This document shows, piece after piece, positions 2,626 through 51,051 of a stretch of 51,051 nt of DNA. How positions within the stretch are numbered: position 1 is the first letter of the stretch; every line of letters starts with the position of its first letter. A program made the position numbers and the translations under genes. The stretch comes from a virus (lineage: Duplodnaviria > Caudoviricetes): positions 1 to 51,051 of IMG/VR virus record IMGVR_UViG_3300047272_000461. The stretch is one strand, 5' to 3'. Below the pieces are notes generated by a model. That model was not told the origin of the DNA, did not search any database, and saw nothing but the letters and a program-made list of their open reading frames with translations.

Positions 2626-2654
2626 AGTGGAACAGACAACCGCTTGCGTGTCAA
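2626..2654 (-). promoter_or_regulatory. Early sigma70-like promoter TTGACA-N17-TCCACT with CAAGCGGTTG palindrome in the spacer
   Basis: Exact 17-bp spacing; same architecture recurs at about ten other sites. Confidence 0.65.
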
Positions 2655-3868
2655 GCACCTTCCGACAAATCTTTTTCGTCCTTGCCGGCCATACGCACGA
2701 TGAGGGGCTGGAAGATGCCCTTGGTTCGCACCAGGTCCTCTTGGGCACGCATCACCGAATGGATGTCCTTGTAGGCCTGTGGCGACTCGTCCAAGCCCCC
2801 GCCAATCAAGTCCACCCCCGCACCCTTCAGGACGGCTTCACGGGCTTCCTGGGTGATGTTCTTGAACGCCTGCGAGCGAGACATCGCGCGACCCGAACCG
2901 TGCGAGGCAGACTGGAGGGAGTCTTCCGACCCAGTCCCTTCGACGATGAAGGCAGGCGTAGCCATAGAGGAGGGGATGATGCCCTCCACGCCCTTCCCTG
3001 CCGGCGTAGCGCCCTTACGATGGACATACAGCATCTTGCCGTCCACTTCCTCAAGCCAAGCGAAGTTGTGGTGGTTGCTGATGGAGCGAACCACTTCCCC
3101 TGTTAGGCCGGCCGCCTCAACGACGTTCTTATGGATGGCTCGATGGTTCGCGGCGGAGTAATCTCCGCACAGGTTCATCAGCGTCCAGTAATCCTGTCCT
3201 TCTTCCGTGTCCATAGACAGCCAGGACAGTTCGTTGAGCGGAGCGGGCAGAGGGTTAATCTTTGCCGCGAGCTTCGTGAAGTGGTTCGCCACCGTGTATC
3301 CGAATGAGCGAGAACCAGAGTGCGACAGGAGCGCCAGATGATGAAGCCCCGAAGACTCGCTGGACAGGTGCGAGTAGTATTCGCCCCACTCGACGAAGTG
3401 ATTGCCTCCGCCGGATGTGCCGAGCTGCCAATGTGCGCGGTCCTTCAGCGAACTGCCGTTTGGTAGGACGATGCCATACTTGTCCAACACCTTCCATCGA
3501 GGGTCGTCCATCAGCGGTTCTTCCGCACGCACCTTCGGGCAAGCGTAGCCACCGAAGTATGTGTTGTCCTTGAGGACGGTGCGATACTTCTGGTGCAGCT
3601 CATCGTCGAAGCCGTTCTTCAGCACGGTCAGGTGCATCCGGCAGCCGATGTCCACGCCGACGGCGTAAGGGATGACGGCGTTCTCCACCGCGCACACGCC
3701 ACCGATGGGCATGCCGTAGCCCTGGTGGGCGTCGGGCATCAATGCCCCTTTGACGACGCAGGGGATGGACATGACGTTGTCCATCTGCGTGAGCGCTCCC
3801 TGTTCGATGTTCTCTTTGCCGTAGATGCGGTATTCTTTCATAGGCAGTCCAAACTGCCCGTCGTTCAC
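2651..3868 (-). CDS. rtcB: RtcB family 3'-phosphate/5'-OH RNA ligase
   Basis: Motifs MPDAHQGYGMPIGG, GVDIGC, LGTSGGGNHF, HSGSR, HHNFA, HRKGAT, SHGSGR, DESPQAYK. Confidence 0.96.
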   Translation of the reverse strand: MNDGQFGLPMKEYRIYGKENIEQGALTQMDNVMSIPCVVKGALMPDAHQGYGMPIGGVCAVENAVIPYAVGVDIGCRMHLTVLKNGFDDELHQKYRTVLKDNTYFGGYACPKVRAEEPLMDDPRWKVLDKYGIVLPNGSSLKDRAHWQLGTSGGGNHFVEWGEYYSHLSSESSGLHHLALLSHSGSRSFGYTVANHFTKLAAKINPLPAPLNELSWLSMDTEEGQDYWTLMNLCGDYSAANHRAIHKNVVEAAGLTGEVVRSISNHHNFAWLEEVDGKMLYVHRKGATPAGKGVEGIIPSSMATPAFIVEGTGSEDSLQSASHGSGRAMSRSQAFKNITQEAREAVLKGAGVDLIGGGLDESPQAYKDIHSVMRAQEDLVRTKGIFQPLIVRMAGKDEKDLSEGA

Positions 3869-5892: not shown

Positions 5893-6563
5893 CGCATGAT
5901 TTCCTCGTCTTCGTCCTCTTCGTCTTCCGGGTCACGCTTCGTGGTGGTGAAGCCAAACTTCTCGCCCATCAGCGTCTGCTTCTTCTTGTTCTTCACGACT
6001 TCCTTGCCGCCGTCTGCGAAGTCCCACAGGGTCGGCAGGCGGGTGCGTCCGGACTCGGCTGGGAACCAGGCCTCGCTGTATGCCCAGTTCTCGATGTCCT
6101 TGTGCTCGAAGACGTCGGACTTCATCAGGAGCTGCACCTCCTCGAAGGTGGCGCCTATGGCAACGGCGAGCTCGTCCATCGGATACTTGTGCTTCTCGAC
6201 CAGTTCCCGGACATACTCGCTCATGCGGAACGCCAGGTGCGTTCCCTTCGCGCGGTTGATGCGGACGGTGATGACCATCGCCTCTGCGTCGCTGACATCC
6301 AGGACGGCGCACGGAACCTTGCCGTGATACTTGTCACGCAGCTGCGAGGATAGGCGCGACAGCGTCCAACGGTGGAAGCCGTCGATGATGGTCCGGTTCG
6401 TGTTGATGAGGATGGGCTGTATCCAGCCGGTCTTCAGGATGGATTTCTCGATGAGGTTCATCTCGGCGTTCATCACTCGGTTAGGATTGTAATGGTTCGC
6501 CTTCAGCTCGTCGCACGAAATCCATTGGATGTTCTCCACTGGTTCGAGGGGTTTTTGGGTCAT
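5889..6563 (-). CDS. ParB/Srx-like nuclease domain protein, IbrB-like
   Basis: LKANHYNPN, GWIQPI, IIDGFHR, TVRINRAKGTH motifs. Confidence 0.85.
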   Translation of the reverse strand: MTQKPLEPVENIQWISCDELKANHYNPNRVMNAEMNLIEKSILKTGWIQPILINTNRTIIDGFHRWTLSRLSSQLRDKYHGKVPCAVLDVSDAEAMVITVRINRAKGTHLAFRMSEYVRELVEKHKYPMDELAVAIGATFEEVQLLMKSDVFEHKDIENWAYSEAWFPAESGRTRLPTLWDFADGGKEVVKNKKKQTLMGEKFGFTTTKRDPEDEEDEDEEIMR

Positions 6564-6620
6564 GGCATCTTACTTTTCGCCGCCTCTTAAAGAGGAGGCA
6601 AGCGAATACTGCTCACAAGT

Positions 6621-7136
6621 TCACTCCCCAAGGAGCGTCTTGAGGGCGCGCTCGTAGCGCTTCACCTGACCCGGATTGTCGTTGTCCTTCAGGTTGGAGC
6701 GGAGGTCGGAAATCTTCACCTCCCGTGCTATCCTGTTAGGCTTCACAATCTGCTCGATGTATTCCTGGTAAGTCATCTGCCGCTCTTCGGCTGGCGGGCG
6801 CGTCAGGGCGTTCACCGCCTCGATGACGTTCTCTGGGATGCCCTCTTCCCTCATCTCCTTCGCTGTGATGCCCCCGTCCTCCATCGTGTCGTGTAGGTAT
6901 GCAGCCAGTTTGGCTTCAGGGGACTTCACGCCGGCTACCACCTCACGCACATGGGTCATGTATGGCGAACCATCCCTTCGCTTCTGCGTGGCGTGCGCAA
7001 ACTCGGCGATGCTTTCGGCGGACTTCAGGATGGCCGCTTGGTCCCTCCCAGACTGGCGTAGGGACTCGTTCTCAAGCGAGAAGGGGTATCCCCTGCCCGA
7101 CTGCTCCGAAAGCGACCTGGACGCCCCACGGGCCAT
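6621..7136 (-). CDS. HD-domain hydrolase (SpoT-HD/Mesh1-like, putative (p)ppGpp hydrolase) with MARG leader
   Basis: AHATQKRRDGSPYMTH, AAYLHDTMED, VKISDLRSN motifs. Confidence 0.85.
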   Translation of the reverse strand: MARGASRSLSEQSGRGYPFSLENESLRQSGRDQAAILKSAESIAEFAHATQKRRDGSPYMTHVREVVAGVKSPEAKLAAYLHDTMEDGGITAKEMREEGIPENVIEAVNALTRPPAEERQMTYQEYIEQIVKPNRIAREVKISDLRSNLKDNDNPGQVKRYERALKTLLGE

Positions 7137-7798
7137 CAGTCGTTAATGTTCGGCTCGCCTCGCTTGTAGTATTCGTCCGGGATGACGTAGACCTTTGCGC
7201 CCAAGTCAATGTTGGCCGCCAGTCGGTCACCAAGGTCCTTCAGGGGTCTTGGCTCACCAAGCTCGGTGATTTTGACCTTGTTGCCTGCATTGTCCTTGAA
7301 GGTGAACTCGTCACGCGCACGAAGCTGGTCGCCGATGAATAGGAACGTCTGCTTGTCCGGACCCTTGCCAGCCGTAGCCATCGACACGTTCGTGTCGGCG
7401 TAGAAACGCATAAAGGACTCTGCGTCCTGTCTGCGGTATTCCACCGGCAGCTCGCCGAGAATACCAGTCCTGGCGCGGACTTCTGCCAGCTTCTGCTCCG
7501 ACTCAAGAACCATCTTGCCGACCTCCTTGGCGAAGTTGGCCCTGTCGCCGCTGTCCACCAACGCCTTTAGGCGGTCTGCCATACCCTTGTTGAAGGCGCT
7601 AATCTCTTCCTTCACGCCCAAAGCGACGGCGTAAGGAGACTTGGCTGCCTGACGACCAACCGACTCAAGCTTGGTCCCAATCTTGGAGTAGTTTGAGGAA
7701 GCCCTTTGGCTTGCCCGGTATTGGGCAATCTCGTCCGAGCCGCCTCCAAGTTGACGAAGGGTTCTTTCAGACTGCGCTCTCGATGTTCCTCTGGCCAT
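7136..7798 (-). CDS. Hypothetical protein with MARG N-terminus
   Basis: 220-aa ORF; N-terminus resembles that of the HD protein; preceded by late motif at 7807-7820. Confidence 0.75.
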   Translation of the reverse strand: MARGTSRAQSERTLRQLGGGSDEIAQYRASQRASSNYSKIGTKLESVGRQAAKSPYAVALGVKEEISAFNKGMADRLKALVDSGDRANFAKEVGKMVLESEQKLAEVRARTGILGELPVEYRRQDAESFMRFYADTNVSMATAGKGPDKQTFLFIGDQLRARDEFTFKDNAGNKVKITELGEPRPLKDLGDRLAANIDLGAKVYVIPDEYYKRGEPNIND

Positions 7799-7824: not shown

Positions 7825-8910
7825 TCAGACCAACTTGGCCCAGGCCTTCTGGCCCTTGCGGAACGGAAGCAGGAGCTTCCAGACCTGTCCCCGGATGAAA
7901 TACTTGAGGACGTAGTCCAGCGGGTAGTTGTTCATGGCCTTGTTCCTATCGCTTTGCTGGAGCTTGTAGATTTGGTAGAGGCGGTTGAGCGCGAGGGTTC
8001 GCGGCTTCCCCTCGTCGTAATGCTCCTTGATGTATTCCTCGATGCCCTCGATGGACTGGGCATACTTGGCGATGAGCGCTTGGTCGTCTCGCTCGCCCGC
8101 ATACCGGTCGTGGATGACTTGCTCCGGGAAAATCTTCAGCAGCTGGTCGTAGAACATAGGGTCGATTTGCCGCAACTTCTTCAGGTGGCGCATCTTCTCC
8201 GGGTGCAGGAAGGGACTGGTTCGCAGCTCCATCTTGGCAAACAACTGCCAATCGTAGATTTGGCAGTAAGGCAGCTTGTTGTCGTAGAGATACTTCAGGA
8301 CATCGTTCTCCTCCCAGTCGTAGAGCGGCTTGCAGAGCGTTGCCGCCTTCCAGCCAAGGGGCTTGTTGATGTAGTTCTCGACGAGTTTGTTGACCGAACC
8401 GCGCCACCTAAAGCGGGACTCGGATGCGCGGATGCCGTTCAGCTGCGCGACCTTGCCCACGAAGAATTGGCACTGATACTCCTCGACGTCCTCAATCCAC
8501 CAGTCTCTGTCCCAATTCGCAGCGTCCGGGCGTATGGCATAGGACGGCATCGGCACCATCGTCTCACGCTTCTTGTCCCATTGGACGAACTCGACGCATC
8601 GGTCAAAGACCATGCGGAGGCCTGGCTCCGGGATGCAGATGTGGTGCATCCGCACCCAAGGGAACGCCGCGTAGTGGCGCACGAAGTCGATGGTGGGCTT
8701 GAGTGTGAACTCGTCGTGGCGGAACACGCAGTTGACGAACTCCAGCCCTCGCTCCTGGGCGACTTCCCACGCCAGGTGAAGCAGGACTTGCGAGTCCTTG
8801 CCCCCAGAGAATAGGACCACCGGCGTATCGTGGGTGTCGTAGATGTGGTGGAGGCGTTGGCGAGCTGCGTCCAGCACGCTGATGCCCATCTGTTCTTTGT
8901 AGCGACTCAT
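7825..8910 (-). CDS. PAPS-reductase family protein, IbrA/DUF3440-like
   Basis: SVLDAARQRL, PP-loop FSGGKDS, GIRASES..R, KPLYDW...DV motifs. Confidence 0.88.
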   Translation of the reverse strand: MSRYKEQMGISVLDAARQRLHHIYDTHDTPVVLFSGGKDSQVLLHLAWEVAQERGLEFVNCVFRHDEFTLKPTIDFVRHYAAFPWVRMHHICIPEPGLRMVFDRCVEFVQWDKKRETMVPMPSYAIRPDAANWDRDWWIEDVEEYQCQFFVGKVAQLNGIRASESRFRWRGSVNKLVENYINKPLGWKAATLCKPLYDWEENDVLKYLYDNKLPYCQIYDWQLFAKMELRTSPFLHPEKMRHLKKLRQIDPMFYDQLLKIFPEQVIHDRYAGERDDQALIAKYAQSIEGIEEYIKEHYDEGKPRTLALNRLYQIYKLQQSDRNKAMNNYPLDYVLKYFIRGQVWKLLLPFRKGQKAWAKLV

Positions 8911-9574: not shown

Positions 9575-9603
9575 CTGTTCATCGTCAACACTTTTCCACT
9601 ATG

Positions 9604-9674
9604 CAGGTTCGCAGGGACTCGAACCCCGACTCTTGGTATCAAAAACCAGTATGCTGCCATTACATCACGAACCT
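9604..9674 (-). tRNA. tRNA-Gln(TTG)
   Basis: Acceptor AGGTTCG/CGAACCT, anticodon loop TTTTGAT, GTTCGAGTC T-loop; no encoded CCA. Confidence 0.85.
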
Positions 9675-9681
9675 GTGGAAG

Positions 9682-9755
9682 TGGTGGACCGTGGGAGAGT
9701 CGAACTCCCATCGCCCGGATGCAAACCGGGGGTTCTGCCATTGAACTAACAGCCC
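9682..9755 (-). tRNA. tRNA-Ala(TGC)
   Basis: Cloverleaf, CCCGG-TTTGCAT-CCGGG, ends ACCA. Confidence 0.92.
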
Positions 9756-9763
9756 TATGAGAT

Positions 9764-9837
9764 TGGGAGCGGGGGTGGGAGTCGAACCCACCATAACAAG
9801 CTTATGAGACTTGCCGCTCCACCGGGAGCTCCCCGCC
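9764..9837 (-). tRNA. tRNA-Met(CAT)
   Basis: CAAGT-CTCATAA-GCTTG, T-arm GTGGGTTCGACTCCCAC, CCA end. Confidence 0.82.
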
Positions 9838-9842
9838 ATAAA

Positions 9843-9918
9843 TGGAGGACATCCTTGGACTTCAACCAAGTAGAAGTTGCTTTGCAGGCAACGGCCTCGT
9901 GCCTTCGGCTTGATGTCC
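9843..9918 (-). tRNA. tRNA-Cys(GCA)
   Basis: GTTGC-CTGCAAA-GCAAC, ends TCCA; variant T-loop TTGAAGT. Confidence 0.82.
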
Positions 9919-9924
9919 TGAAAC

Positions 9925-9997
9925 TACGGCAAGCGGGGGTCGAACCCGCAACATCCAGTTTGGAAAACTGACACTCTGCCAATTGAGTTACTGCCGT
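9925..9997 (-). tRNA. tRNA-Gly(TCC)
   Basis: TCAGT-TTTCCAA-ACTGG; no encoded CCA. Confidence 0.88.
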
Positions 9998-10002
9998 GAA
10001 AG

Positions 10003-10075
10003 CACCAAGGGGTGGGGTCGAACCACCGACAGACGCATTAACAGTGCGTTGCTCTGCCAACTGAGCTACCTTGAT
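10003..10075 (-). tRNA. tRNA-Asn(GTT)
   Basis: ACGCA-CTGTTAA-TGCGT; canonical D and T arms. Confidence 0.9.
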
Positions 10076-10078
10076 AAA

Positions 10079-10153
10079 TGGTTGTCGAGGAAGGAGTCGA
10101 ACCTTCATCTGCCGGTTCGTAGCCGGCCATTCTGTCCGTTGAAATACCCGACA
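10079..10153 (-). tRNA. tRNA-Arg(ACG)
   Basis: GCCGG-CTACGAA-CCGGC, ACCA end. Confidence 0.9.
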
Positions 10154-10159
10154 ATAAAC

Positions 10160-10234
10160 TGGTCACCGAGACAGGACTTGAACCTGCAACCTCCTGGTCC
10201 CAAACCAGGCGCGATGCCATTACGCTACTCGATG
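10160..10234 (-). tRNA. tRNA-Pro(TGG)
   Basis: CCTGG-TTTGGGA-CCAGG, ACCA end. Confidence 0.92.
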
Positions 10235-10240
10235 TTAGGA

Positions 10241-10306
10241 TGACGCATAGAAGGAGTTTGAACCTTCTTCCCCCGATGGACGGGATGCAGCTTACACCAA
10301 TGCGTC
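10241..10306 (-). tRNA. Atypical short tRNA-like element (possible CCA anticodon)
   Basis: Acceptor GACGCAT/ATGCGTC, T-arm GAAGG-TTCAAACT-CCTTC, shrunken D arm, CCCG-TCCAT-CGGG anticodon arm. Confidence 0.55.
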
Positions 10307-10309
10307 AAG

Positions 10310-10399
10310 TGGTAGAGGGTGTCCGATTTGAACGGACGAGCGTTTTACCGCTATCTGTTTTCAAGACAGGTGCATTAAGCCGGACTCTGCCAACCCTCT
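10310..10399 (-). tRNA. tRNA-Ser(TGA)
   Basis: CTGT-CTTGAAA-ACAG, long variable arm AGCG-GTAAAA-CGCT, CCA end. Confidence 0.9.
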
Positions 10400-10405
10400 G
10401 TAAAA

Positions 10406-10480
10406 TGGTGACCCGAACAGGACTCGAACCTGTATTAGGTGGGTAGAAGCCACCGGTTCTGTCCATTGAACTATCGGGTC
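10406..10480 (-). tRNA. tRNA-Arg(TCT)
   Basis: GGTGG-CTTCTAC-CCACC, ACCA end. Confidence 0.92.
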
Positions 10481-10483
10481 AAA

Positions 10484-10557
10484 TGGCGGGGAGTGTCGGA
10501 GTCGAACCGACCCCAGTGGATTTGGAGACCACTGTGCTACCGAAACACTTACTCCCC
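10484..10557 (-). tRNA. tRNA-Trp(CCA)
   Basis: GTGGT-CTCCAAA-TCCAC, GCCA end. Confidence 0.88.
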
Positions 10558-10563
10558 AAATAC

Positions 10564-10635
10564 TGGGCGCGGATGGACTCGAACCAGCATTAGCCCGTTA
10601 TGAGCGGGTCGTTCTGACCTTTGAACTACACGCCC
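10564..10635 (-). tRNA. tRNA-Ile2/Met(CAT)
   Basis: CCCG-CTCATAA-CGGG; 5' GGGCGTG acceptor resembles Ile2 (lysidine) type. Confidence 0.85.
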
Positions 10636-10644
10636 AAGAAAGAT

Positions 10645-11022
10645 TTACCGGGTGGAAAACCATTGAGTCGAGTAGCTGCGCTCGCTCCCTCCCCGGCGGT
10701 ATCGTAAGTTTCTCTACGACCCAATTGTGCTTCCCACCTCACGGAGGGAGGACTTGGTTTCGCCCCACGCTACGCCCTTCACGGCCTTGGTGGTTAACCA
10801 GGAGCGCTCCAAGCGGTCACAGCGTGACGCTTCTGAACCCGTAGCAAGCCCCCTTAACACCTTGAGGCGAGGGAGGGTCCTGCATCGGAAAAACCAACCA
10901 CACGATTTGTCCGCCATGTTCCGGCGGGTCGCTCGGTGACTTTGCACCGAAAGAGCAGGCGTCATCTGACGATGAACTGACCCCCTTGGGGTCGTGCTGG
11001 TTCGCATACGCAAACCACACCC
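10645..11022 (-). ncRNA. ~380-nt structured RNA within the tRNA array, GOLLD-like
   Basis: Continuous hairpins (GACCCC-AAG-GGGGTC, TCGGTG/CACCGA, CCGCC/GGCGG, GNRA loops, terminal CCGGG/CCCGG), potential GCTAC/GTAGC pseudoknot; no credible ORF. Confidence 0.6.
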
Positions 11023-11027
11023 ACAAA

Positions 11028-11102
11028 TGGAGCATCGGGACGGACTTGAACCGACAACCCTCTGTTTACAAAACAGGAGCTCTGCCATTGAGCTACCAAT
11101 GC
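11028..11102 (-). tRNA. tRNA-Thr(TGT)
   Basis: CTGT-TTTGTAA-ACAG, TCCA end. Confidence 0.92.
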
Positions 11103-11114
11103 GTTAGCAATCGC

Positions 11115-11191
11115 TGGCAGGACCGTTGGGACTCGAACCCAAATTACCGGAATGAAAATCCGGAGTCCTGAACCAGTTAAACGACGACCCC
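11115..11191 (-). tRNA. tRNA-Glu(TTC)
   Basis: CCGGA-TTTTCAT-TCCGG, GCCA end. Confidence 0.9.
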
Positions 11192-43449: not shown

Positions 43450-44451
43450 TCAACCAATGTAGCTCCCGCCCTCAAACGACATAGGCGTCGCCGGCTGGGA
43501 ATACATTTGGGGAAGGGTGGTTCGCTGCGCGTGACGACGCATCGACTTGATGTCTTCGATGAGCGCCTCGAACGAGTCGATGACTCCGGTCGTAAGACCA
43601 CGGGCGGCAGCCTTGTCGCCGTAGAACGACTGCCCTTGTAGGTCTGTCAGTTGGGCGTAGAGGCGAACCGACTGGACGTCCCGGATGAACCGGTTGTGGA
43701 GCTCGTCCACTTCGTCTTGCAGGGAATTGATTTGGTCGGGGGTAAGCGAGGTGCCTTCGACACCAGCCGCCTTGTATTTTCCCGACTTGATGACGACAAC
43801 TTCCTTACCCTCTTTCTCGAACTTCTTACGCTCGTCGGTCATCGTGATGTAGACACCGCAAGCCCCGACGGAGGCAGAGGGGGTAGCGACGAAACGCTTG
43901 CACTGGGACGCCATCCAGAAGGCGGCAGAACCGCAATCGGAGTCCGTAAAGGAGATGGTCGGCTTTTCGTATGTGCGGATTTGCTTGGCAAGCTCCTCAA
44001 GACCAGTCGTCGAGCCACCGCCGGAGTCCACACGCAGTAGGACCTCAAACACCGTGTCATCTTCAGCCCAGCTCTTCAGGGTGTCCGAAATCACGTCGAT
44101 GTCGGCGCAACCGAGCATCGCTTCGAGGGGGGAGAGGCACTTTCCGATGACTCCCTTGACCGGAATGATACCGATGCCATCACGCACATAAGGGCGTGAG
44201 GCGGTAGCGATACCCGCCGCCATCGCTTGTAGGTCCATGTCCTCGTCGTCCGCCTGCGGGACGAAACGCTTCGCCTTCGGGCCGACTTCCGGCTTCTCCA
44301 CCTTCGGCATCATGTATGCCGAAAGCTGGTATGCGATTTCAGGATTAGACAGGATGGTGTCCGCGCCTTTCAGGAACGCCTGAACCTTGAGGGGGTCAAT
44401 CAGGAGGGGTCGTCCCGCCTTCAGTGCGTAAGTTAGGTCGCTTCTAATCAT
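43450..44451 (-). CDS. S49 (SppA/lambda gpC-type) prohead protease
   Basis: IPVKGVI, VDSGGG, CGSAAFWMAS, VGACGV, SGKYKAAG motifs. Confidence 0.92.
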   Translation of the reverse strand: MIRSDLTYALKAGRPLLIDPLKVQAFLKGADTILSNPEIAYQLSAYMMPKVEKPEVGPKAKRFVPQADDEDMDLQAMAAGIATASRPYVRDGIGIIPVKGVIGKCLSPLEAMLGCADIDVISDTLKSWAEDDTVFEVLLRVDSGGGSTTGLEELAKQIRTYEKPTISFTDSDCGSAAFWMASQCKRFVATPSASVGACGVYITMTDERKKFEKEGKEVVVIKSGKYKAAGVEGTSLTPDQINSLQDEVDELHNRFIRDVQSVRLYAQLTDLQGQSFYGDKAAARGLTTGVIDSFEALIEDIKSMRRHAQRTTLPQMYSQPATPMSFEGGSYIG

Positions 44452-46175
44452 CGAGAGAATGGCTGTTCCCTGTTGCGGGAAAGCCCTGGATTTTGTTTTG
44501 GCAGGGTGTCAACAGAAGTTTCCATCTGCGTCGCCGGTTCGGCTGCAGGACTCTTCTGCGGAGGAGCGAGCTCTGGTTCGCTGTTCGTGAGCGCGTCTCC
44601 CGGCATCTGGTCTGCGGGCTGTCCCATGATTTGGTCGATGGGGACGATTTGGGGCGAACCATCTGGACCTGGCATAACCACGCCCAACGCACCTTCGGGG
44701 ATAGTGTTCGCGGCAGGGGCTCCGCCGCCTCCGCCTTGACCGCCTGCGGGCGACTTGCGCCAAAGCTTGTCCTCCGGCACGCCAGTCTCCTTCGACACAC
44801 GCTGAATGTAGGCAAAGTCTCTCGCCGATTTTCTGATGGTCTTCTCGAAGCCATAGCCACGAGCTCCAAAGTCATCCGACGGCGGGATACGACCCATGTC
44901 CAAGTCGGCGCGTTCGTTCGCACCCTCACGGCCTGCGTCCACGGTCACGCTCTTGCAACACACCCACTCCGTCTTCCACCAGTTGCGAGCATTAGGCAGC
45001 TCCTTGCGGTCAATCTTGATGCCACACCAGAACTGGAAGTAGTCCTGGAGGAAGCGATTGATGAGCACCGTCTGGCGATGCGAGAAAAATCTCCCCGCCT
45101 TCGCTACCACGAGGCGAACGGAAGCACCTCCAGCGCGAGTCGGGTCCGCCACGAACTCGTAAGGAAGCCCGCCCATGATAGAGTCGCGGCGTAGATGGTC
45201 GATAAACCCGGCAAAAGCAGCTGAAGGGCGTGCAGACTGGTAAGAGACGAGGGACTCATTGTTTCCAAGAACTGCGGTCACACCACCAAGGACACGGTTC
45301 AGCGCGTCGGGGTCGGTGTTGGCGGTGGCGGAGTTGCCTTCGCCCAAGGGCTGACCAAGACCCAGGTCACCGGAGTCCATCCGGGTGTCTTCCACCTTCA
45401 GGATGCGACTGGTGCGGCTGTTGTCCTTAACAGCGACCTTCTCCATAGCGAGGAGGTCCATCTCATCACGCATGTGATTGATGGCGTGCTGGTGCGGCGG
45501 GAAGGCTCGGCTCTGCGAGGCGTATTCCACGTCGTAGATGTGCATCATCGACGCCGCCTTAATAGGCTCGTATTTGCCGTCGCCTTGCTTGACGTAGTAG
45601 AAGGTCGGACGACCCAGCTTGTCGAAGCGGATGCCGTCAAAGATGTCCGGCAGGGACATCGCATCGGGCGGAGTCTCGACTCTGTGGGCCTCGATGATTT
45701 GGAACTTCGGGTTGCCCTTCTTATCCTTGCACTTGATGACGAAGATTTCCCCGTCCCGGTCCAAGGCTTCGCAAATGATGTAGAGCGACTCCAGCATCGA
45801 GAAGCGCCCGCTGATTTCTGGGCGGATGCACTCCTGCTCCCATTCGGCTTCCACCAGGTTCTGCCAGTCGTAGTCCCCACCCAAAGCTTGCAGACCGATA
45901 CCCTCGCCCACCGAGTAGATGGCCGTGTCCTTAATCATCTGCTTGTATAGGCCGTTATTCTTCTCCAACCAGCGGGAAAGGCGAACCATCTCACGACGAG
46001 TCGCCCCCGTCATCTCCATGCGGAAGTCCGTCGGCTGCGGCGCGTCAATGCGCGTGCGGTGGACGGAGTAGCGGGTAGACTCGAAAGCCCCCTGATACGC
46101 CTTCGGCTTCAGGAGGTTGGACAGGGACATGCGGACCCGGTCAACAAGTCCTGGCTTCTTCGGTTCGAGTGGCAT
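44448..46175 (-). CDS. Portal protein, lambda family
   Basis: SR.LEKNN, SVGEG, DGEIF, GIRFDKLGRP.FY, GLPYE motifs. Confidence 0.92.
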   Translation of the reverse strand: MPLEPKKPGLVDRVRMSLSNLLKPKAYQGAFESTRYSVHRTRIDAPQPTDFRMEMTGATRREMVRLSRWLEKNNGLYKQMIKDTAIYSVGEGIGLQALGGDYDWQNLVEAEWEQECIRPEISGRFSMLESLYIICEALDRDGEIFVIKCKDKKGNPKFQIIEAHRVETPPDAMSLPDIFDGIRFDKLGRPTFYYVKQGDGKYEPIKAASMMHIYDVEYASQSRAFPPHQHAINHMRDEMDLLAMEKVAVKDNSRTSRILKVEDTRMDSGDLGLGQPLGEGNSATANTDPDALNRVLGGVTAVLGNNESLVSYQSARPSAAFAGFIDHLRRDSIMGGLPYEFVADPTRAGGASVRLVVAKAGRFFSHRQTVLINRFLQDYFQFWCGIKIDRKELPNARNWWKTEWVCCKSVTVDAGREGANERADLDMGRIPPSDDFGARGYGFEKTIRKSARDFAYIQRVSKETGVPEDKLWRKSPAGGQGGGGGAPAANTIPEGALGVVMPGPDGSPQIVPIDQIMGQPADQMPGDALTNSEPELAPPQKSPAAEPATQMETSVDTLPKQNPGLSRNREQPFSR

Positions 46176-46420
46176 CAGCGGTCAACCAGACGGTTGTAGT
46201 TCGTGTAAAGGGCACGCACCCTCCCATCCAGTCTCTGAAGGGCGTAGTTCGCCTCCTGGAGCATCTGCTGTGGTGGTAGGGCAAACTGCTTGCTGGCGTT
46301 CGTAGCGCCATCGCCGTAGCTCATGATGGTCTTGCCCTCCAGTATGAGCTGGACGGCCTTATCACGGATTGCCTCGACTGTTTCACGAGGGAGTCCGACA
46401 AATAGTCCGTTGGCTGGCAT
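46175..46420 (-). CDS. Head-tail joining protein (gpW-like)
   Basis: 81 aa directly before portal; LEGKTIMSYG pattern. Confidence 0.7.
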   Translation of the reverse strand: MPANGLFVGLPRETVEAIRDKAVQLILEGKTIMSYGDGATNASKQFALPPQQMLQEANYALQRLDGRVRALYTNYNRLVDR

Positions 46421-46444
46421 CGTGCTTTTGGCACGCTGTCAACG

Positions 46445-46810
46445 GGCTATCGGTATTTCGTTCACAAAAGGGATGGTTCGCTGTATGACCCCTTGAACCC
46501 CATTGAGATGACCCCGTAGAGCCGTTTCCCATGATGCTGCCGCTCGTCTCCGAAGCGGTCTTTCATCAGCCGAACCAAAGTAAAGGAGCACCAAGACTTT
46601 TGTAGGCGGGAACCTTTCGGTCTATGCCCCGCCCACGCTGTCTGTCTTGGCATCTTGGCTCGCTTGTTTCCGATGGAGGTCGCCCTCCGGAGTGGAACCG
46701 CCGCCCCGCATCTCCCCCGGTTTGGACCCAGGTAATTGCTGAAGCGACGTGTTAGTAGCGAGTCGCAGCACCACCCTGCTTACGCAGGACCGCCGGTTTC
46801 CCGACGGCAA
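46445..46810 (-). ncRNA. ~360-nt GNRA-rich structured RNA (unknown family)
   Basis: GCCGTCGG-GAAA-CCGGCGGT, CCTGC-GTAA-GCAGG, GGAGG-GCGA-CCTCC, CC-GAAA-GG, long CCAAGAC/GTCTTGG helix; no credible ORF. Confidence 0.6.
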
Positions 46811-46858
46811 AGTTTTAAAGAACTGAAGGTAGTCTTACCCTCGTAGGCAGTTTGTCAA
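46811..46858 (-). promoter_or_regulatory. Late-type motif, hairpin and boxA-like GTTCTTTAAAACT
   Basis: TTGACA-AACTG-CCT, then AGGGTA-AGAC-TACCTT, then CAGTTCTTTAAAACT. Confidence 0.6.
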
Positions 46859-46873
46859 CTGTATTTTTTAGAG

Positions 46874-46987
46874 TCGCCGTGGAGGAGTCGAACCTCCGTC
46901 CACGAGTCCTTTCAAGAGGCCTGGGTCTTGCGAACCAGTGCCACCGCCAATCAAGGCGGCTTCCAAGGACAGCACCACGCTACGGCG
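46874..46987 (-). ncRNA. tRNA-like RNA A (acceptor + T-arm, branched central arm)
   Basis: CGCCGT/ACGGCG, GGAGG-TTCGACT-CCTCC. Confidence 0.7.
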
Positions 46988-46994
46988 TAAAGTG

Positions 46995-47270
46995 TATTCA
47001 GCAACCGACAGCACTCCCTTGTCTCCCCCGCGGCTTATTGCGGTTTCTATCCGGGTGCTCCGTGTCAGAGCTGTGGACCTTTCGGCTACCCACGCCTGTT
47101 GCCCGCCAACTGCCGGCCGTCCCACGAAAGAGGTGGGCTGTCTCCGGTGCAAGAATACCCCCTGCGTAGACAGGGCTTGTCCAGTTCGCTTGCGGCACTT
47201 TTCAGATGCCGACGGGTGATAGGCCGTCCCTCCTTGCGGAGCTGTGCGAGTGGTTTGCGTGGCGTTGAAA
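46995..47270 (-). ncRNA. ~275-nt structured RNA (unknown family)
   Basis: Closing TTCAAC/GCTGAA, CTCC-GCAA-GGAG, CC-GAAA-GG, GGCA/TGCC and CCCTG/CAGGG hairpins. Confidence 0.5.
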
Positions 47271-47290
47271 TGTCAGAAGAACAGAAAGAG

Positions 47291-47443
47291 TGGCGGGTGG
47301 TGGGACTTGAACCCACAATCTTCAAGGTGACGTTTTAAACCGCCGCAGGGGACTAACCCTGCGCTACCTTGCCTCTGCGTTGCCCTTGGCCGTAGTTACT
47401 TCGGCCCCCAGGACTTCTTACTCCCTGGGACGCTACACCCCCC
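47291..47443 (-). ncRNA. tRNA-like RNA B (expanded D and anticodon arms, GCCA end)
   Basis: GGGTG/CACCC, GTGGG-TTCAAGT-CCCAC, GCGT/ACGC D stem. Confidence 0.72.
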
Positions 47444-47471
47444 ATAAAGTTTTCAAGTTTCGATTACGGGC

Positions 47472-47554
47472 CTGATTTTCTCTCCCCCCTTTCGGGGGGT
47501 TGTAGGCGTGCTTGCTAACGCCTCGTTGTTCGAGCTTTCGCTCTACAAAATCAG
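47472..47554 (-). ncRNA. Multibranch RNA module
   Basis: Closing CTGATTTT/AAAATCAG with GAGC-GAAA-GCTC, AGGCGT/ACGCCT, CCCCCC-GAAA-GGGGGG. Confidence 0.65.
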
Positions 47555-47555
47555 T

Positions 47556-47708
47556 AGACCCCGGCTGGACTTGAACCAGCAACTGAAATTACTCGTGACT
47601 TATCCCTCGACGCAGACGTCTACGTCGGGGGCATCCATCGCTTTCATTCACCCATCATCGCGCGTTAACACGCTTCGGGCCAACTCGGACCAATCGAGTA
47701 GCGGGGTC
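47556..47708 (-). ncRNA. tRNA-like RNA C (about 80-nt expansion after D arm)
   Basis: GACCCCG/CGGGGTC, ACTCG-ATTGGTC-CGAGT, GCTGG-TTCAAGT-CCAGC. Confidence 0.72.
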
Positions 47709-47719
47709 GTAAGTGACTC

Positions 47720-47770
47720 TCCTGGTTGGCGACGCTCTTATCGCAGAGCGGGCGTTGGTCGGCGCCAGGA
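47720..47770 (-). ncRNA. Long hairpin module
   Basis: TCCTGG/CCAGGA closing, inner CGCTCT/AGAGCG. Confidence 0.5.
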
Positions 47771-47808
47771 TGGTCTGAAACTTGAATGTCAAAAGAACTG
47801 AAAGGGGA

Positions 47809-47880
47809 GCTGGTTGGTGGGACTCTACACGGTTTGGATGCGTGTGAGTGGTATGTTGCGACTTCGCATCCCACGCCAGC
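47809..47880 (-). ncRNA. Three-way junction module
   Basis: GCTGG..TGGGA / TCCCA..CCAGC closing; 3' TCCC. Confidence 0.55.
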
Positions 47881-47884
47881 AAGG

Positions 47885-47958
47885 TGGAGTCGGCGTTGCC
47901 GTTTTTACGGCACTCCCTCCGCAGAGGGATTTCGCAGCTCGGTCATTCGAGCGCCGAC
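47885..47958 (-). ncRNA. tRNA-sized cloverleaf without anticodon or T loops, 3' UCCA
   Basis: GTCGGC/GCCGAC+TCCA; GCTCG/CGAGC; TCCCTC-TGCG-GAGGGA; TGCCGT-AAAA-ACGGCA. Confidence 0.65.
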
Positions 47959-47968
47959 ATAAAGGGGA

Positions 47969-48043
47969 CTGGCGGTCCATTCATCAAGAGGCATACGGTG
48001 CGTGCTTTGAGGTGAAGGGGTTTGTTCCAACCCCACCCGCCAG
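47969..48043 (-). ncRNA. Three-way junction module
   Basis: CTGGCGG/CCGCCAG closing, GGGGTT/AACCCC hairpin; 3' TCCC. Confidence 0.55.
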
Positions 48044-48052
48044 AAATGTAGA

Positions 48053-48161
48053 GAGTCGCCTTTGGTCTTTTCGCTCACTCCCCAGTCGTTGTTGCGGCTT
48101 GGTCGTGGTTCACAGCCCCTGCTTGTTGCAGAGGACTTACGGTAGATTTTTCAGGCGACTC
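48053..48161 (-). ncRNA. Multibranch RNA module (first in array)
   Basis: 9-bp closing helix GAGTCGCCT/AGGCGACTC. Confidence 0.55.
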
Positions 48162-48250
48162 AAAGAACAGAGGGTAGTTAACCCTGATGAGAGAAGACAA
48201 TCAGATACCCAAGGGCTTGACAAGCGCAAAGTGAAAAAAAGTGAAAATAG
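48160..48250 (-). promoter_or_regulatory. ncRNA-array promoter/leader: T-tract UP-like element, TTGTCA-N17-TTGTCT, hairpin AGGGT-TAACT-ACCCT, boxA-like CTGTTCTTTGA
   Basis: Direct read; leader nearly duplicated at 46811-46842. Confidence 0.55.
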
Positions 48251-48313
48251 TTCAGACCCCCCATTTTCATTGGGGTTTTCAGGGTATTCCAAACTACTGC
48301 GCGTCCAGACCTA

Positions 48314-50152
48314 TCAGGCTGGAGGGGCTTCGGCAGGCTGGTCGGCGGGCTTCTCCTCCGGGGGAGGGGGAGGCGGCGGGGCGAGGAAACCGAACGCCAG
48401 GGCCGGCACGAACTGCATCACTTCGCAGTCCCAAAGGTGGTTCGCTCGCTTGCCGATGCGCTTCCATTCGGGCTTGCCTGCCAGGTTCTTCGTGCGGACT
48501 TCCGACTCCATCTGGTCGAGGTAGTCCTGGCCGCAGTCCGTCGCCGTCGTGTGCTTGCCCACCTTACGCATGCGGGAGAGCTGGTCTTTGAGAGCCAAGT
48601 TGGAGAAGTGATGGACTCGCACGGGTCCTGTGCCGACGTTCACCATACGCGCGGGCGCGTAGACCTTGCCCACCGGCTTGCGTCCCTTCGGCGTATCCAC
48701 CATCCAGGTGAACTCATAGCGTTGGTCGCCTCGTAGTGCCGTCCACTTGTTGATACCGCATTGGCGGATGACGTCGTCGAACTGGTCACCGCAGTCAACG
48801 TATGTCAGGGCGGGGTGGACTTCCAACGCCTTGCCCATCGCAATCACGTCTTCCCAAGTCTGCACATACCGCCACTTGATGAGGCGCGAGTCGCCTCCTT
48901 CCGCCCAGCCGCGAACCAGCACGAAGAAGCCCTCACGCTGGACGTCGACGGACATGAAACGAGCTCGTATCTGCTTCTCCCGCTTGTGGTCGGAATGTAT
49001 CTTGCGGGTCGCAGGGTCGATGCGGGCTTCCTTGTCCCACTCATCCCCCATCTTGTAGTCCCCAATGGTTTGTAGGCTTCCAAAGTCATCCGGGGCATCC
49101 GACCAGAACTGGGCCTTCTGCTTCTGGGTGAAAATCTGCATCGGCTTCGAGTCGCCGTTCGTGTCCAAGGCGAGCTTCGCCCGGACATACATCTCCGCCA
49201 TACCGCCCCAGGAACGGGCCGCCAAGCCACTCCAAGTGTAGCCGTGGTTCGCAGGGTCGGCCGACGGGTTTGTGATGGCATAGAACCCCCTTGCGTTGAA
49301 ATCGTCTCGGTTCGAGCGGGTGTCGTTGAACTGCTTCTTGCACCCCTCGCACTCATACTTCGTCTCCCGCTTGATGAGGCCATAGTCAAAGTCCCCATCC
49401 CTCTGCATCGCATCGGGTATCCTCACCTGGTCCCAGCTCCACGGCTGACGATGCCCGCAATCCGGGCATGCGAACGACCACACCCTCATGTCCGTCGTCT
49501 TCCACACCGCCTCGGTGTCGTCCCCAACGAACGACCCCTGCGACATGAAGATACGCTTACCCAACCAACCGAAAGAGGTCACACGCGCGGACGCTTCCGC
49601 AAGGTGGCCCTGCGGCCACAGCCAAGTCTCGTCACCCACCAGCCATCGGATAGAACGCCGTTGTAGGTTCTTCTCATTGAACGCCCCCAGACACCAGAAA
49701 GTCATGTCCTCCGTCTGCACCGTCCCTGACTTCTTCCCCGTCTCGTCCTTCGACAGCTTCGCAATCACCGGGGGCACGTTCTCCCACAGCACTCGTAGGC
49801 GGCTCTGCATCCAGTCCGCCGCGTTCGAGTCTTGGTCGTTCAGGTAAAGCGTCGGGGCAGGCTGGCGGGCTATGATGAAGCACGACAGCATCTCCGCCAT
49901 CAGGGACTTGCCCGACTGAATGGGCGCGATGGTCACCACCAAGCGAACCTCCGGGTCGGCGCACGCCCGAAGCGGCTCCGCCAACCAAGGCGTCTCCTGA
50001 ACCCGGAAACCCGACGGCATCGGCGAGAAAGGTATCTGCCTGATGTTCTCCTCCAACCAAGTCACGATGTCCCCACCCTCGTCAGGGCGGAACACCTTCC
50101 TGATGCGGGCTTCCAACTGGTCGGCTATCGCCTCCTTCTGGGCAGGGGTCAT
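48314..50152 (-). CDS. Terminase large subunit, lambda GpA family
   Basis: ETPWL.EP, Walker A APIQSGKS, Walker B LVGDE, CPDCG/CEGC Zn motif, MSVDVQ and NHLWDCEV nuclease motifs. Confidence 0.95.
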   Translation of the reverse strand: MTPAQKEAIADQLEARIRKVFRPDEGGDIVTWLEENIRQIPFSPMPSGFRVQETPWLAEPLRACADPEVRLVVTIAPIQSGKSLMAEMLSCFIIARQPAPTLYLNDQDSNAADWMQSRLRVLWENVPPVIAKLSKDETGKKSGTVQTEDMTFWCLGAFNEKNLQRRSIRWLVGDETWLWPQGHLAEASARVTSFGWLGKRIFMSQGSFVGDDTEAVWKTTDMRVWSFACPDCGHRQPWSWDQVRIPDAMQRDGDFDYGLIKRETKYECEGCKKQFNDTRSNRDDFNARGFYAITNPSADPANHGYTWSGLAARSWGGMAEMYVRAKLALDTNGDSKPMQIFTQKQKAQFWSDAPDDFGSLQTIGDYKMGDEWDKEARIDPATRKIHSDHKREKQIRARFMSVDVQREGFFVLVRGWAEGGDSRLIKWRYVQTWEDVIAMGKALEVHPALTYVDCGDQFDDVIRQCGINKWTALRGDQRYEFTWMVDTPKGRKPVGKVYAPARMVNVGTGPVRVHHFSNLALKDQLSRMRKVGKHTTATDCGQDYLDQMESEVRTKNLAGKPEWKRIGKRANHLWDCEVMQFVPALAFGFLAPPPPPPPEEKPADQPAEAPPA

Positions 50153-50928
50153 TCGTCGCCCTCCAGCTCGTCAAGAGCGTCATCCGTGAAGTCCTCAAGC
50201 GAACCACCCGCCTTCGGGGTGTCGTCGTCTTCCAGGTCCTTGACCGCTCCAAAGAACGCCGCGTTCGCCGGCTTCGACGGCTGGATGCCAATCACGTCGT
50301 CCCCAATGGCGGGACTCCTGTCCCGAACCTCCGGGCTGTATTCCGAAATCTTGCGGAACAGGTCATCCCGGAAATCTCTAAACGCCTTCAATGCTTTCGG
50401 GGGGTTATCAGGATTTGCCTTGGGGGCCACCGTCAACTCCGCCCGCTCTATTAGGTTTCTCAACTGACCCATCACCTTCGCAAAGCGAGCCGCCGCCACC
50501 TCCGCATCAATCAACTTACCCTCCTCTTGGATACGGATGAACCGCTCCTTCTCCAACCGCAGTAGGGTAGCCACCGCGCGGTCATAGTTCGCATAAAGCT
50601 TCCCCTGCGCCGGGTCGCCCGACTGGAGCGCCTGCATAAAGACCTGTCTCGTCAGCGAGCACAACTCCGTCTGCTCCCTCACGCGCGTGTCCATCTCCGT
50701 ATCCCCAGTCTCCCCTGTCACCGACTTCAGGATGCTGTCCAAGTCCCCAAGGTTCAACGGCTGCACCGGCTGACTGATGTGACCCTTCCCCTGCATCTCC
50801 AACTTCCGACGGTCACGCCACGCCCTCGCCTCCTCTATCGAGTCGCCAGGCATCCCCTCCTTTACGAGCTGAGATACCCGACCCTTGGTGAGCCCAAGTG
50901 CCGCCGCTATTTCACTTTGTGATGCCAT
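50149..50928 (-). CDS. Terminase small subunit (Nu1-like)
   Basis: N-terminal wHTH SQSEIAAALGLTKGRVSQLVKEGMP...W, GKLI motif; directly upstream of TerL. Confidence 0.85.
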   Translation of the reverse strand: MASQSEIAAALGLTKGRVSQLVKEGMPGDSIEEARAWRDRRKLEMQGKGHISQPVQPLNLGDLDSILKSVTGETGDTEMDTRVREQTELCSLTRQVFMQALQSGDPAQGKLYANYDRAVATLLRLEKERFIRIQEEGKLIDAEVAAARFAKVMGQLRNLIERAELTVAPKANPDNPPKALKAFRDFRDDLFRKISEYSPEVRDRSPAIGDDVIGIQPSKPANAAFFGAVKDLEDDDTPKAGGSLEDFTDDALDELEGDE

Positions 50929-51051
50929 TTATCTTTATGAGTGTTTTCTGCCAAATCTAAACCCGCTGGGTCATTGTGCGGTGTCATAAGACCCCGTGTC
51001 CCCCCCTTTTTTAATAATAGATTTCTTACCCCGGGGGAGGGGGGTATGGGG

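Follow-up and report, generated by a model that had tools for sequence, protein, structure and literature searches.

Locus and RNA-only island

The window analyzed here, meaning the whole stretch of DNA, is the complete 51,051-bp virus record IMGVR_UViG_3300047272_000461, a tailed phage from freshwater. The element under study, called the class C element, is a transfer RNA (tRNA)-like RNA of 152 nucleotides (nt) encoded on the minus strand. The packaging and head genes form a lambda-type module on the same strand, which also includes an S49 protease gene. TerL, the gpW position and the portal stand in the order known from lambda. Between the TerL stop and the gpW-like start lies a 1.9-kb island, and the class C element sits within it on the coding strand of this late (packaging and head) gene string. 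The features of the locus are as follows.

50149-50928, minus strand: small terminase
48314-50152, minus strand: TerL, the 5' flank of the island (Pfam GpA_ATPase 2e-30, GpA_nuclease 5e-18)
46421-48313, minus strand: RNA-only island, from the TerL stop to the gpW-like start
47292-47443, minus strand: class C tRNA-like RNA, 152 nt, with G-1 at 47443, C73 at 47292 and an A next at 47291
46175-46420, minus strand: gene of 81 amino acids at the gpW position, named from its position and without a family match
44448-46175, minus strand: portal (Pfam Phage_portal_2 2.7e-32)

The island holds no credible protein gene. None of its 10 open reading frames (ORFs) matched PHROGs or Pfam. One ORF of 63 amino acids showed a protein identity of only 45-55% over most of its length in two related loci (L002 and L004), against a DNA identity of 85-89%, and its 77% identity to L005 was confined to a 22-residue stretch. 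Related loci, given here by L numbers, were gathered through the terminase and comprised 19 loci from IMG/VR and 80 metagenome loci.

Architecture of the class C element

An earlier note, made from the sequence alone, had described a tRNA-like RNA with hairpins grafted into both the D loop and the anticodon arm. All helices it named were confirmed within 47291-47443, on the minus strand, by the sequence and by the minimum-energy fold. This fold is the eight-helix architecture listed below, with -65.9 kcal/mol and a z-score of -2.91; none of 200 dinucleotide shuffles equaled it.

47436-47442, minus strand: acceptor 5' strand GGGGGUG, partner CACCCGC at 47293-47299, with a G.G mismatch at 2:71
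47430-47433, minus strand: D-stem 5' strand GCGU, partner ACGC at 47377-47380
47407-47429, minus strand: hairpin H1, CCCAGGG-AGUAAGAAG-UCCUGGG, immediately 3' of D-stem nucleotide 13
47388-47406, minus strand: hairpin H2, GGCCG-AAGUAACUA-CGGCC, from the minimum-energy fold
47381-47387, minus strand: D-loop remnant AAGGGCA (A14 .. G18 G19 C20 A21)
47323-47371, minus strand: three-way junction at the place of the anticodon arm, helices 5-7 co-varying
47300-47316, minus strand: T arm GUGGG-UUCAAGU-CCCAC

The acceptor forms six of its seven pairs, plus G-1:C73, and UA at positions 8-9 follows its 5' strand. The D stem encloses 49 nt, 42 of which form H1 and H2. Excision of the two hairpins in silico left a textbook D arm, GCGU-AAGGGCA-ACGC, and the 42-nt insert is therefore placed between nucleotides 13 and 14. 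A linker, AGAGG, separates the D-stem 3' strand from the junction stem. In the junction, a 6-bp stem (CAAGGU/ACCUUG) encloses AGC, hairpin Ha (GCAGGG-UUAGUC-CCCUGC) and hairpin Hb (GGCG-GUUUAAAA-CGUC). A second linker, AAGAUU, precedes the T arm, whose 5-bp stem and 7-nt UUCRANY loop are canonical, as had been noted for GTGGG-TTCAAGT-CCCAC.

The D loop and the anticodon arm were not of the canonical kind, which has 7-11 nt in the former and 5 bp with a 7-nt loop in the latter. By eye, no member of class C carried a 5-bp stem with a 7-nt anticodon loop. The Ha loops across the class were UUAGUC, CUGUCA or CUUUGUCA, and a GUG anticodon loop was absent. Since no member has a 7-nt anticodon loop, the RNA cannot decode. 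Ha itself, judged by eye, looks like a relic of the anticodon arm, displaced onto a branch some 11 bp away from the core.

The 3' end can be read in two ways. In the first, which is that of the earlier note, a 5-bp acceptor is followed by G and CCA. In the second, a 7-bp acceptor (GGGGGUG/CACCCGC, G.G at 2:71) is flanked by G-1 and C73. The former is possible on the window sequence, and the relatives favor the latter.

Conservation and covariation

Class C sequences were collected by a motif search and then with a covariance model, R1, built from seven sequences. R1 gave 19 matches with E <1e-6 in 96 sources, which correspond to 14 distinct sequences; duplicates (L003, L008, L014 and L044) and chance or genome loci (L021-L036) were left out. 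The window element scored 135 bits (E 3.6e-40), and ordinary tRNAs reached only 12-18 bits. All 14 sequences came from loci with a terminase identity of at least about 70%.

In a MAFFT alignment of the seven sequences, RNAalifold gave a structure of 43 pairs in eight helices. Pairing was found in 95.1% of cells compared to 36-54% when the partners were slid, and both sides had changed in 16 of the 43 pairs compared to 2-4 with slid partners, a value that none of 500 shuffles reached. For all 14 sequences, 96.9% of cells were paired (40-50% slid) and 29 of 43 pairs had changed on both sides (5-13 slid); this alignment was fitted to R1 and so leans towards it, with seven rows outside the seed. 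Related sequences inflate such counts, and these are therefore to be read as strong and not as probabilities.

The changes were spread over the frame and the inserts alike. The acceptor pairs (helix 1) co-varied across the class, and the D stem GCGU/ACGC became GCAU/AUGC in L011 and L005b. Both sides had changed in seven of the eight H1 pairs (helix 3), five of the eight H2 pairs (helix 4) and three of the five T-arm pairs (helix 8). Similar loop sequences also recurred among members of subclass C1. Because the insert helices are conserved by covariation, the inserts count as RNA parts under selection rather than as junk.

The contact between the D loop and the T loop was preserved as well. 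The D-loop remnant read GG-Y-A in the nine sequences with a UUCAA T loop and AG-Y-A in the five with a UGCAA T loop; all 14 agree (Fisher p 0.0005, without correction for kinship). Both states occurred among the closest C1 relatives (L016a versus L009; the window versus L007), which implies at least two joint switches. The remnant thus co-varies with the T loop, as a kept 18:55 and 19:56 contact predicts, and indicates that the tRNA elbow has been kept.

The proposal in the earlier note had been made to depend on conservation of the helices in relatives, and they are conserved. Covariation bears out both inserted hairpin sets, in the D loop and in the anticodon arm, and the structural half of its tRNA-frame claim (acceptor, D stem, T arm and elbow contact). 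The other half, in which RNase P, the CCA-adding enzyme or EF-Tu would recognize the frame, can only be inferred. Taken together, it is highly likely that the class C element is a real, conserved structured RNA. Three features go beyond the earlier note: the minus strand, the likeness to tRNA-His through G-1:C73, and the place of the element as one cassette of a 1.9-kb structured-RNA island.

Likeness to tRNA-His

G-1, the extra G after the leader, and C73 were present in all eight C1 members, the window included. In bacteria, the G-1:C73 pair is the main histidine identity mark. Class C2 carried A or U at position 73, and its acceptor (GGGGAUG/CAUCCCC) is one pair apart from that of cell tRNA-His (GUGGAUG/CAUCCAC), whose genes read G-1 GUGGAUG ... 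CAUCCAC C CCA.

Model R1 was also run on 165 cell genomes and found only ordinary tRNAs of 75-79 nt; a single 151-nt match proved to be tRNA-Trp with its flank. In all eight Verrucomicrobiota genomes inspected (six of 151 sampled, which reached E 1e-6 or better, plus two chosen individually), the best R1 match was tRNA-His. Seven of these were typed by ARAGORN, and the one in G033 was assigned by its like length and score only.

The element resembles tRNA-His in G-1 opposite C73, a similar acceptor, UA at 8-9, the G18G19-Y-A21 end of the D loop, and the T arm. Unlike tRNA-His, it lacks a GUG anticodon loop, carries 42 extra nt between 13 and 14, has a lengthened and branched anticodon arm and a mismatch at 2:71, and stays below the threshold of the Rfam tRNA model. 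Going by these sequence likenesses, the tRNA of origin was most likely tRNA-His.

Searches with RNA-finding tools and databases

The earlier note had expected tRNA finders to fail here, and ARAGORN indeed called no tRNA at the element, either by default or with introns allowed, and no transfer-messenger RNA (tmRNA) by default. At the element, Rfam 15 returned nothing at threshold; RF00005 stayed below its gathering score, and the only partial match was to tRNA-Sec (E 2.8). The large-RNA families GOLLD and ROOL were not found at E <=10 in 44000-51051 or at E <=0.5 in the loci of six relatives.

No Rfam intron family matched the element. The sole intron match in the island, group-II-D1D4-4 at 47459-47582 in the neighboring spacer block S1, was sub-threshold (21 versus 49 bits, E 0.18). 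A group I intron within a tRNA was rejected, as the inserts measure only 42 nt and about 40 nt against the at least 200 nt needed and match no intron family. A 752-nt call at an ARAGORN threshold of 80, 'tRNA-Val with a 681-nt intron', paired 48033-48040 with the 3' end of the element and was discarded as a low-threshold artefact.

An exact 26-mer covering the T arm and 3' end had no match in IMG/VR. A gapped pattern scan of the same database gave nine stretches, namely four contigs already in the set and five chance matches without a tRNA-like fold. The accessible portions of the literature held no description of this architecture; a catalogue of about 8,500 candidate structured RNAs from IMG/VR (PMC10690425) may include it. 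Absent from Rfam 15, class C is a new variant family among tRNA-like RNAs.

Other RNAs of the island

The class C element shares the island with at least two more tRNA-like RNAs and with other structured blocks.

47556-47708, minus strand: class B tRNA-like RNA, acceptor GACCCCG/CGGGGUC, T arm GCUGG-UUCAAGU-CCAGC
47444-47555, minus strand: spacer block S1, three hairpins, folded, 74-87% identical in relatives
46989-47290, minus strand: block X, about 300 nt of conserved structured RNA whose alignment is rich in compensatory changes
46873-46988, minus strand: element A, a third tRNA-like RNA, ACGCCGU/ACGGCGA, T arm GGAGG-UUCGACU-CCUCC

Class B has a perfect 7-bp acceptor and a 6-bp D stem (ACUCGA/UCGAGU region) whose loop has 4-5 nt, a D arm like that of tRNA-Sec; about 100 nt separate its D arm from its T arm. 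Among eight relatives, both sides had changed in 20 of 44 pairs. The inner hairpins of the window class B have palindromic loops, GUUAAC and AGACGUCU. The inner part of class B in the relatives is unlike that of the window: they share an insert of their own, which is strongly conserved and includes a GGUUGCAACC hairpin. L002 has at the class B place a tRNA of normal length (7445-7518, equal to L004 7452-7525; Rfam 57.7 bits), and its anticodon loop, UGAAAAU, has G where U33 is expected.

S1 ends in the leader ACUUUAU, which abuts the class C element, and its hairpin GAGCGAAAGCUC changes to GACCGCAAGGUC in relatives. Block X begins with GTTCTTCTGACAT and contains the invariant hairpin CGGCAU-CUGAAAA-GUGCCG. 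This hairpin resembles the anticodon stem-loop of tRNA-Phe(GAA). Enrichment of the tRNA-Phe-like anticodon loop motif YTGAAAA was rejected, with 10 sites in the whole window compared to 11.6 expected; four of the 10 lie in the island, which was spotted post hoc.

Element A was 80-93% identical in relatives, gave a weak tRNA-Sec match (E 0.19) and was called by ARAGORN only with introns allowed. A tmRNA at element A and the block downstream was also rejected: the permuted call appeared only at a lowered threshold and lacked CCA and G3.U70. Downstream of element A lies block Z (46421-46872, minus strand), about 450 nt long, with a z-score of about -4 against mononucleotide shuffles.

Two more classes occur in the relatives. 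Class D, of which the window has none, is about 130 nt long, with a 7-bp acceptor, an encoded ACCA and a conserved inner hairpin loop, UAUCGUG; these units gave weak sub-threshold tmRNA matches (18 versus 47 bits). Class E is 149 nt long and ends in ACCA. Class D was located at the following places.

L002, 7626-7759: class D
L004, 8156-8285: class D
L011, 7837-7966: class D
L013, 8238-8367: class D
L017, 8134-8262: class D

The sequence GTTCTTYTGACAT occurs exactly in the window only twice, at 47270-47282 and 47786-47798 (minus strand), both times in the island and each behind a structured unit. Its candidate roles are those of promoter, terminator tail and recombination joint. It includes TTGACA, with no -10 box after it. 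The island held no sigma-70-type promoter and four terminator-like sites, which is not above expectation.

Putative processing leader and RtcB

All 29 listed tRNA-like units were directly preceded by ..TTAY. A 5' leader, ..TTTAY, was common to the class C element and the real tRNAs of the phage, and this sharing fits tRNA-type processing. The conserved mismatches at 2:71 and 3:70 make use by EF-Tu doubtful.

The phage has 13 ordinary tRNA genes at 9603-11191 (ARAGORN). A gene for an HD-domain protein (6621-7136, minus strand) and one for a PAPS-reductase/PP-loop protein (7825-8910, minus strand) adjoin this cluster. Elsewhere in the window, one further gene of RNA metabolism was found.

2651-3868, minus strand: RtcB RNA ligase (Pfam 4.5e-75)

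RtcB may be linked to the island. In the phage, no tRNA-intron endonuclease (PF01974), Ro60/TROVE protein or CCA-adding enzyme was detected. RtcB was present in one of the five relatives' records searched and missing from L005 (97% complete) and L007 (100%), both of which carry class C.

Cassette exchange and RNA contigs

The island is a mosaic: from phage to phage, its blocks share 70-93% identity, and the tRNA-like units that separate them are replaced. Class C precedes X in the window but follows it in L007, and units were also duplicated independently. In TerL relatives at <=44% identity, the portal followed about 400 nt downstream and no island was present. At the place of the window's island, L050 (2532-3797) and L051 (5399-6286) carried RtcB in an accessory region downstream of TerL, and L015, L019 and L055 carried ordinary tRNAs in that region. 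In L009, a 368-amino-acid ORF without a Pfam family (6354-7460) is inserted at the 3' end of the island.

Four RNA runs were compared with the window. In two metatranscriptomes from two studies (X16 and X19), contigs of relatives, 458 and 438 nt long, joined 47442 to 47290, with 125 other letters replacing the 151 of the element. This shows a clean cassette swap at the borders of the element. The third run, X18, covered 46431-46781. The window's own phage was not found in the RNA libraries, where only conserved blocks of relatives matched, and the contigs are a weak hint of transcription of the island. No joints inside tRNA-like units were seen in the RNA contigs, and parts that they leave uncovered prove nothing.

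The island had no blastn match among 50,697 deposited phages, and the nearest cultured phages by TerL were <25% identical. A TerL scan of genomes gave distant relatives only (<=46% identity over a short piece), the best being metagenome-assembled genomes (MAGs) of Verrucomicrobiota. These nearest cellular terminase relatives are bacterial.

Comparison with known RNAs

To our knowledge, non-decoding tRNA-shaped RNAs are few: tmRNA, YrlA, the viral 3' tRNA-like ends and mascRNA. We know of no ordinary tRNA with an insert at this D-loop position. Published systems are compared below as the accessible portions of the cited reports describe them.

YrlA does not decode; it joins another functional module to one that resembles a tRNA, with D arm, T arm, elbow contacts and an acceptor-like stem. 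For one YrlA, cleavage by RNase P and addition of CCA are on record (PMC4201824). Some bacteria have their YrlA genes close to RtcB, with an rsr-yrl-rtcBA operon (PMC7790460). The class C element is likewise a non-decoding tRNA-like module joined to what would be other functional modules. In YrlA, however, the order is permuted (T arm, closed 'acceptor' stem-loop and D arm), both ends of the RNA lie in the stem that binds Ro, and the partner is Ro60 (PMC4201824). The element instead has the order and ends of a tRNA, its phage has no TROVE match, and Rfam gave no match to it.

Like tmRNA, the element has a tRNA acceptor and T-arm frame that bears a large non-tRNA body. Unlike tmRNA, it has G3-C70 and not G3.U70, no tag reading frame and a full D stem, and it received no default ARAGORN tmRNA call. 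In the engineered 'tRNA scaffold', the tRNA frame is said to give stability and processing, with the insert in place of the anticodon stem-loop. This scaffold was made for RNA expression in E. coli (PMC3753655), and its design idea is the one that the earlier note proposed. It is man-made, whereas the phage element is natural, is conserved by selection and has an insertion in the D loop too.

Archaeal tRNAs with several introns also carry extra sequence at odd tRNA positions. In contrast, no bulge-helix-bulge was seen in the element, the phage has no splicing endonuclease gene, and its terminase kin are bacterial MAGs. In phage T4, RNAC and RNAD lie within the tRNA cluster. These are small stable phage RNAs of unknown function that are made late (PMC9697503), and they are likened to the element by description only. 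Plant mitochondrial t-elements are tRNA-like structures that serve as processing signals (PMC1920247); they are simple, whereas the inserts of the element are conserved structures. By analogy, the element would work most like YrlA or the engineered tRNA scaffold while belonging to neither.

Interpretation and alternatives

We lean, by a modest degree of confidence, towards reading the class C element as a non-decoding structured RNA derived from tRNA-His, cut out by host tRNA-processing enzymes and displaying conserved insert domains. The island would be transcribed as one or a few precursors, and host processing of the RNase E/P/Z type would cut each unit at the ..UUUAY leader and after position 73. 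The RNA would owe its stability to the L-shaped frame, by which tRNA-binding proteins could also take hold of it, and a partner would bind to the conserved inserts. More speculatively, the RNA might act as a decoy or sponge for an enzyme that binds tRNA-His or for a tRNA-cutting defence nuclease, in a tRNA-centred conflict with the host; this last idea is a guess, and a rather unlikely one.

Several points weigh against this reading. The family is small (14 distinct sequences from one phage clade), and its covariation counts include inherited changes. The 7-bp acceptor has no encoded CCA behind it, and the conserved mismatch at 2:71, joined by 3:70 in most C1 members, might impair how RNase P or a synthetase recognizes the RNA. 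Outside Verrucomicrobiota, R1 matched tRNA-His best in one of three genomes and tRNA-Thr in the other two. The RNA contigs stem from relatives, may be DNA carry-over and cannot define ends. The decoy idea draws solely on cassette turnover and on RtcB or tRNAs occupying the same slot. RtcB is absent from four of the five relatives' records, including two near-complete ones that carry class C.

The alternative that survives best, which we consider unlikely, takes the tRNA-like units as cis processing signals like t-elements: cuts by RNase P and Z would free or stabilize S1, X, Z or late mRNAs, and the inserts would have no role. The units do stand at joints between constant blocks, each behind a ..UUUAY leader, and the island lies within the late operon on the coding strand. 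However, a processing handle could do without inserts, whereas many compensatory changes have preserved H1, H2 and the junction helices; similar loop sequences recur in C1, and several elaborate classes (B, C, D and E) are maintained.

The island could also be an exchangeable arsenal of tRNA mimics, each copying the identity end of one host tRNA, with inserts that bar use by the ribosome. C1 would copy G-1:C73 of tRNA-His and would capture, or be charged by, histidyl-tRNA synthetase (HisRS), or capture a tRNA-cutting defence nuclease. In our judgment, this too is rather improbable.

A reading in which the element is not an RNA of its own but one domain of a giant ornate RNA that takes up much of the island, similar to GOLLD or ROOL, is quite improbable. 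GOLLD occurs near tRNAs and in prophages, the entire 1.9 kb is non-coding and structured, and RNA contigs of 438-632 nt bridge neighboring blocks. On the other side, no Rfam large-RNA family matched even at the permissive E-value cutoff given above, and units were swapped, moved and duplicated independently, so that separate modules fit better than one fold.

An interrupted true tRNA-His, whose inserts are intervening sequences cut by an endonuclease and rejoined by RtcB, is very improbable. The phage does encode RtcB, removal of H1 and H2 does yield a textbook D arm, G-1:C73 is retained, and tRNA-His is missing among the 13 tRNAs of the phage. But the anticodon arm, unlike the D arm, does not become canonical when its insert is removed: by eye, no contiguous deletion brings back a GUG loop of 7 nt on a 5-bp stem. 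H1 and H2 each form a hairpin of their own, and no bulge-helix-bulge was seen by eye across the would-be splice sites. The phage lacks a gene for the tRNA-intron endonuclease, the L005 and L007 records bear class C without RtcB, and the insert helices and loop sequences are conserved. The 125-letter replacement in the RNA contigs, which far exceeds the length of a spliced tRNA, is weak evidence in the same direction. With no restorable anticodon arm and a patchy RtcB, RtcB-dependent splicing is therefore unlikely.

A decaying pseudo-tRNA or a chance fold, to which the failure of tRNA finders, the acceptor mismatch and the missing CCA might point, is hardly credible in view of covariation in all variable helices, the co-varying elbow and the shuffles (0 of 500 and 0 of 200).

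Read as a non-decoding, tRNA-His-derived RNA, the element would belong to a new family from nature that combines a complete tRNA frame with two conserved insert domains, one of them in the D loop, and that comes in several classes and as cassettes exchanged between phages. Since tRNA finders and Rfam miss such genes, 'non-coding gaps' of phages may hide more of them. If the units mimic particular host tRNAs, they would open to experiment an RNA-based aspect of the struggle between phage and host over tRNAs, and an arsenal of such mimics, if true, would be an RNA-based device for counter-defence or host takeover. If confirmed, the mimic units would also be natural, ready-made scaffolds for RNA engineering.
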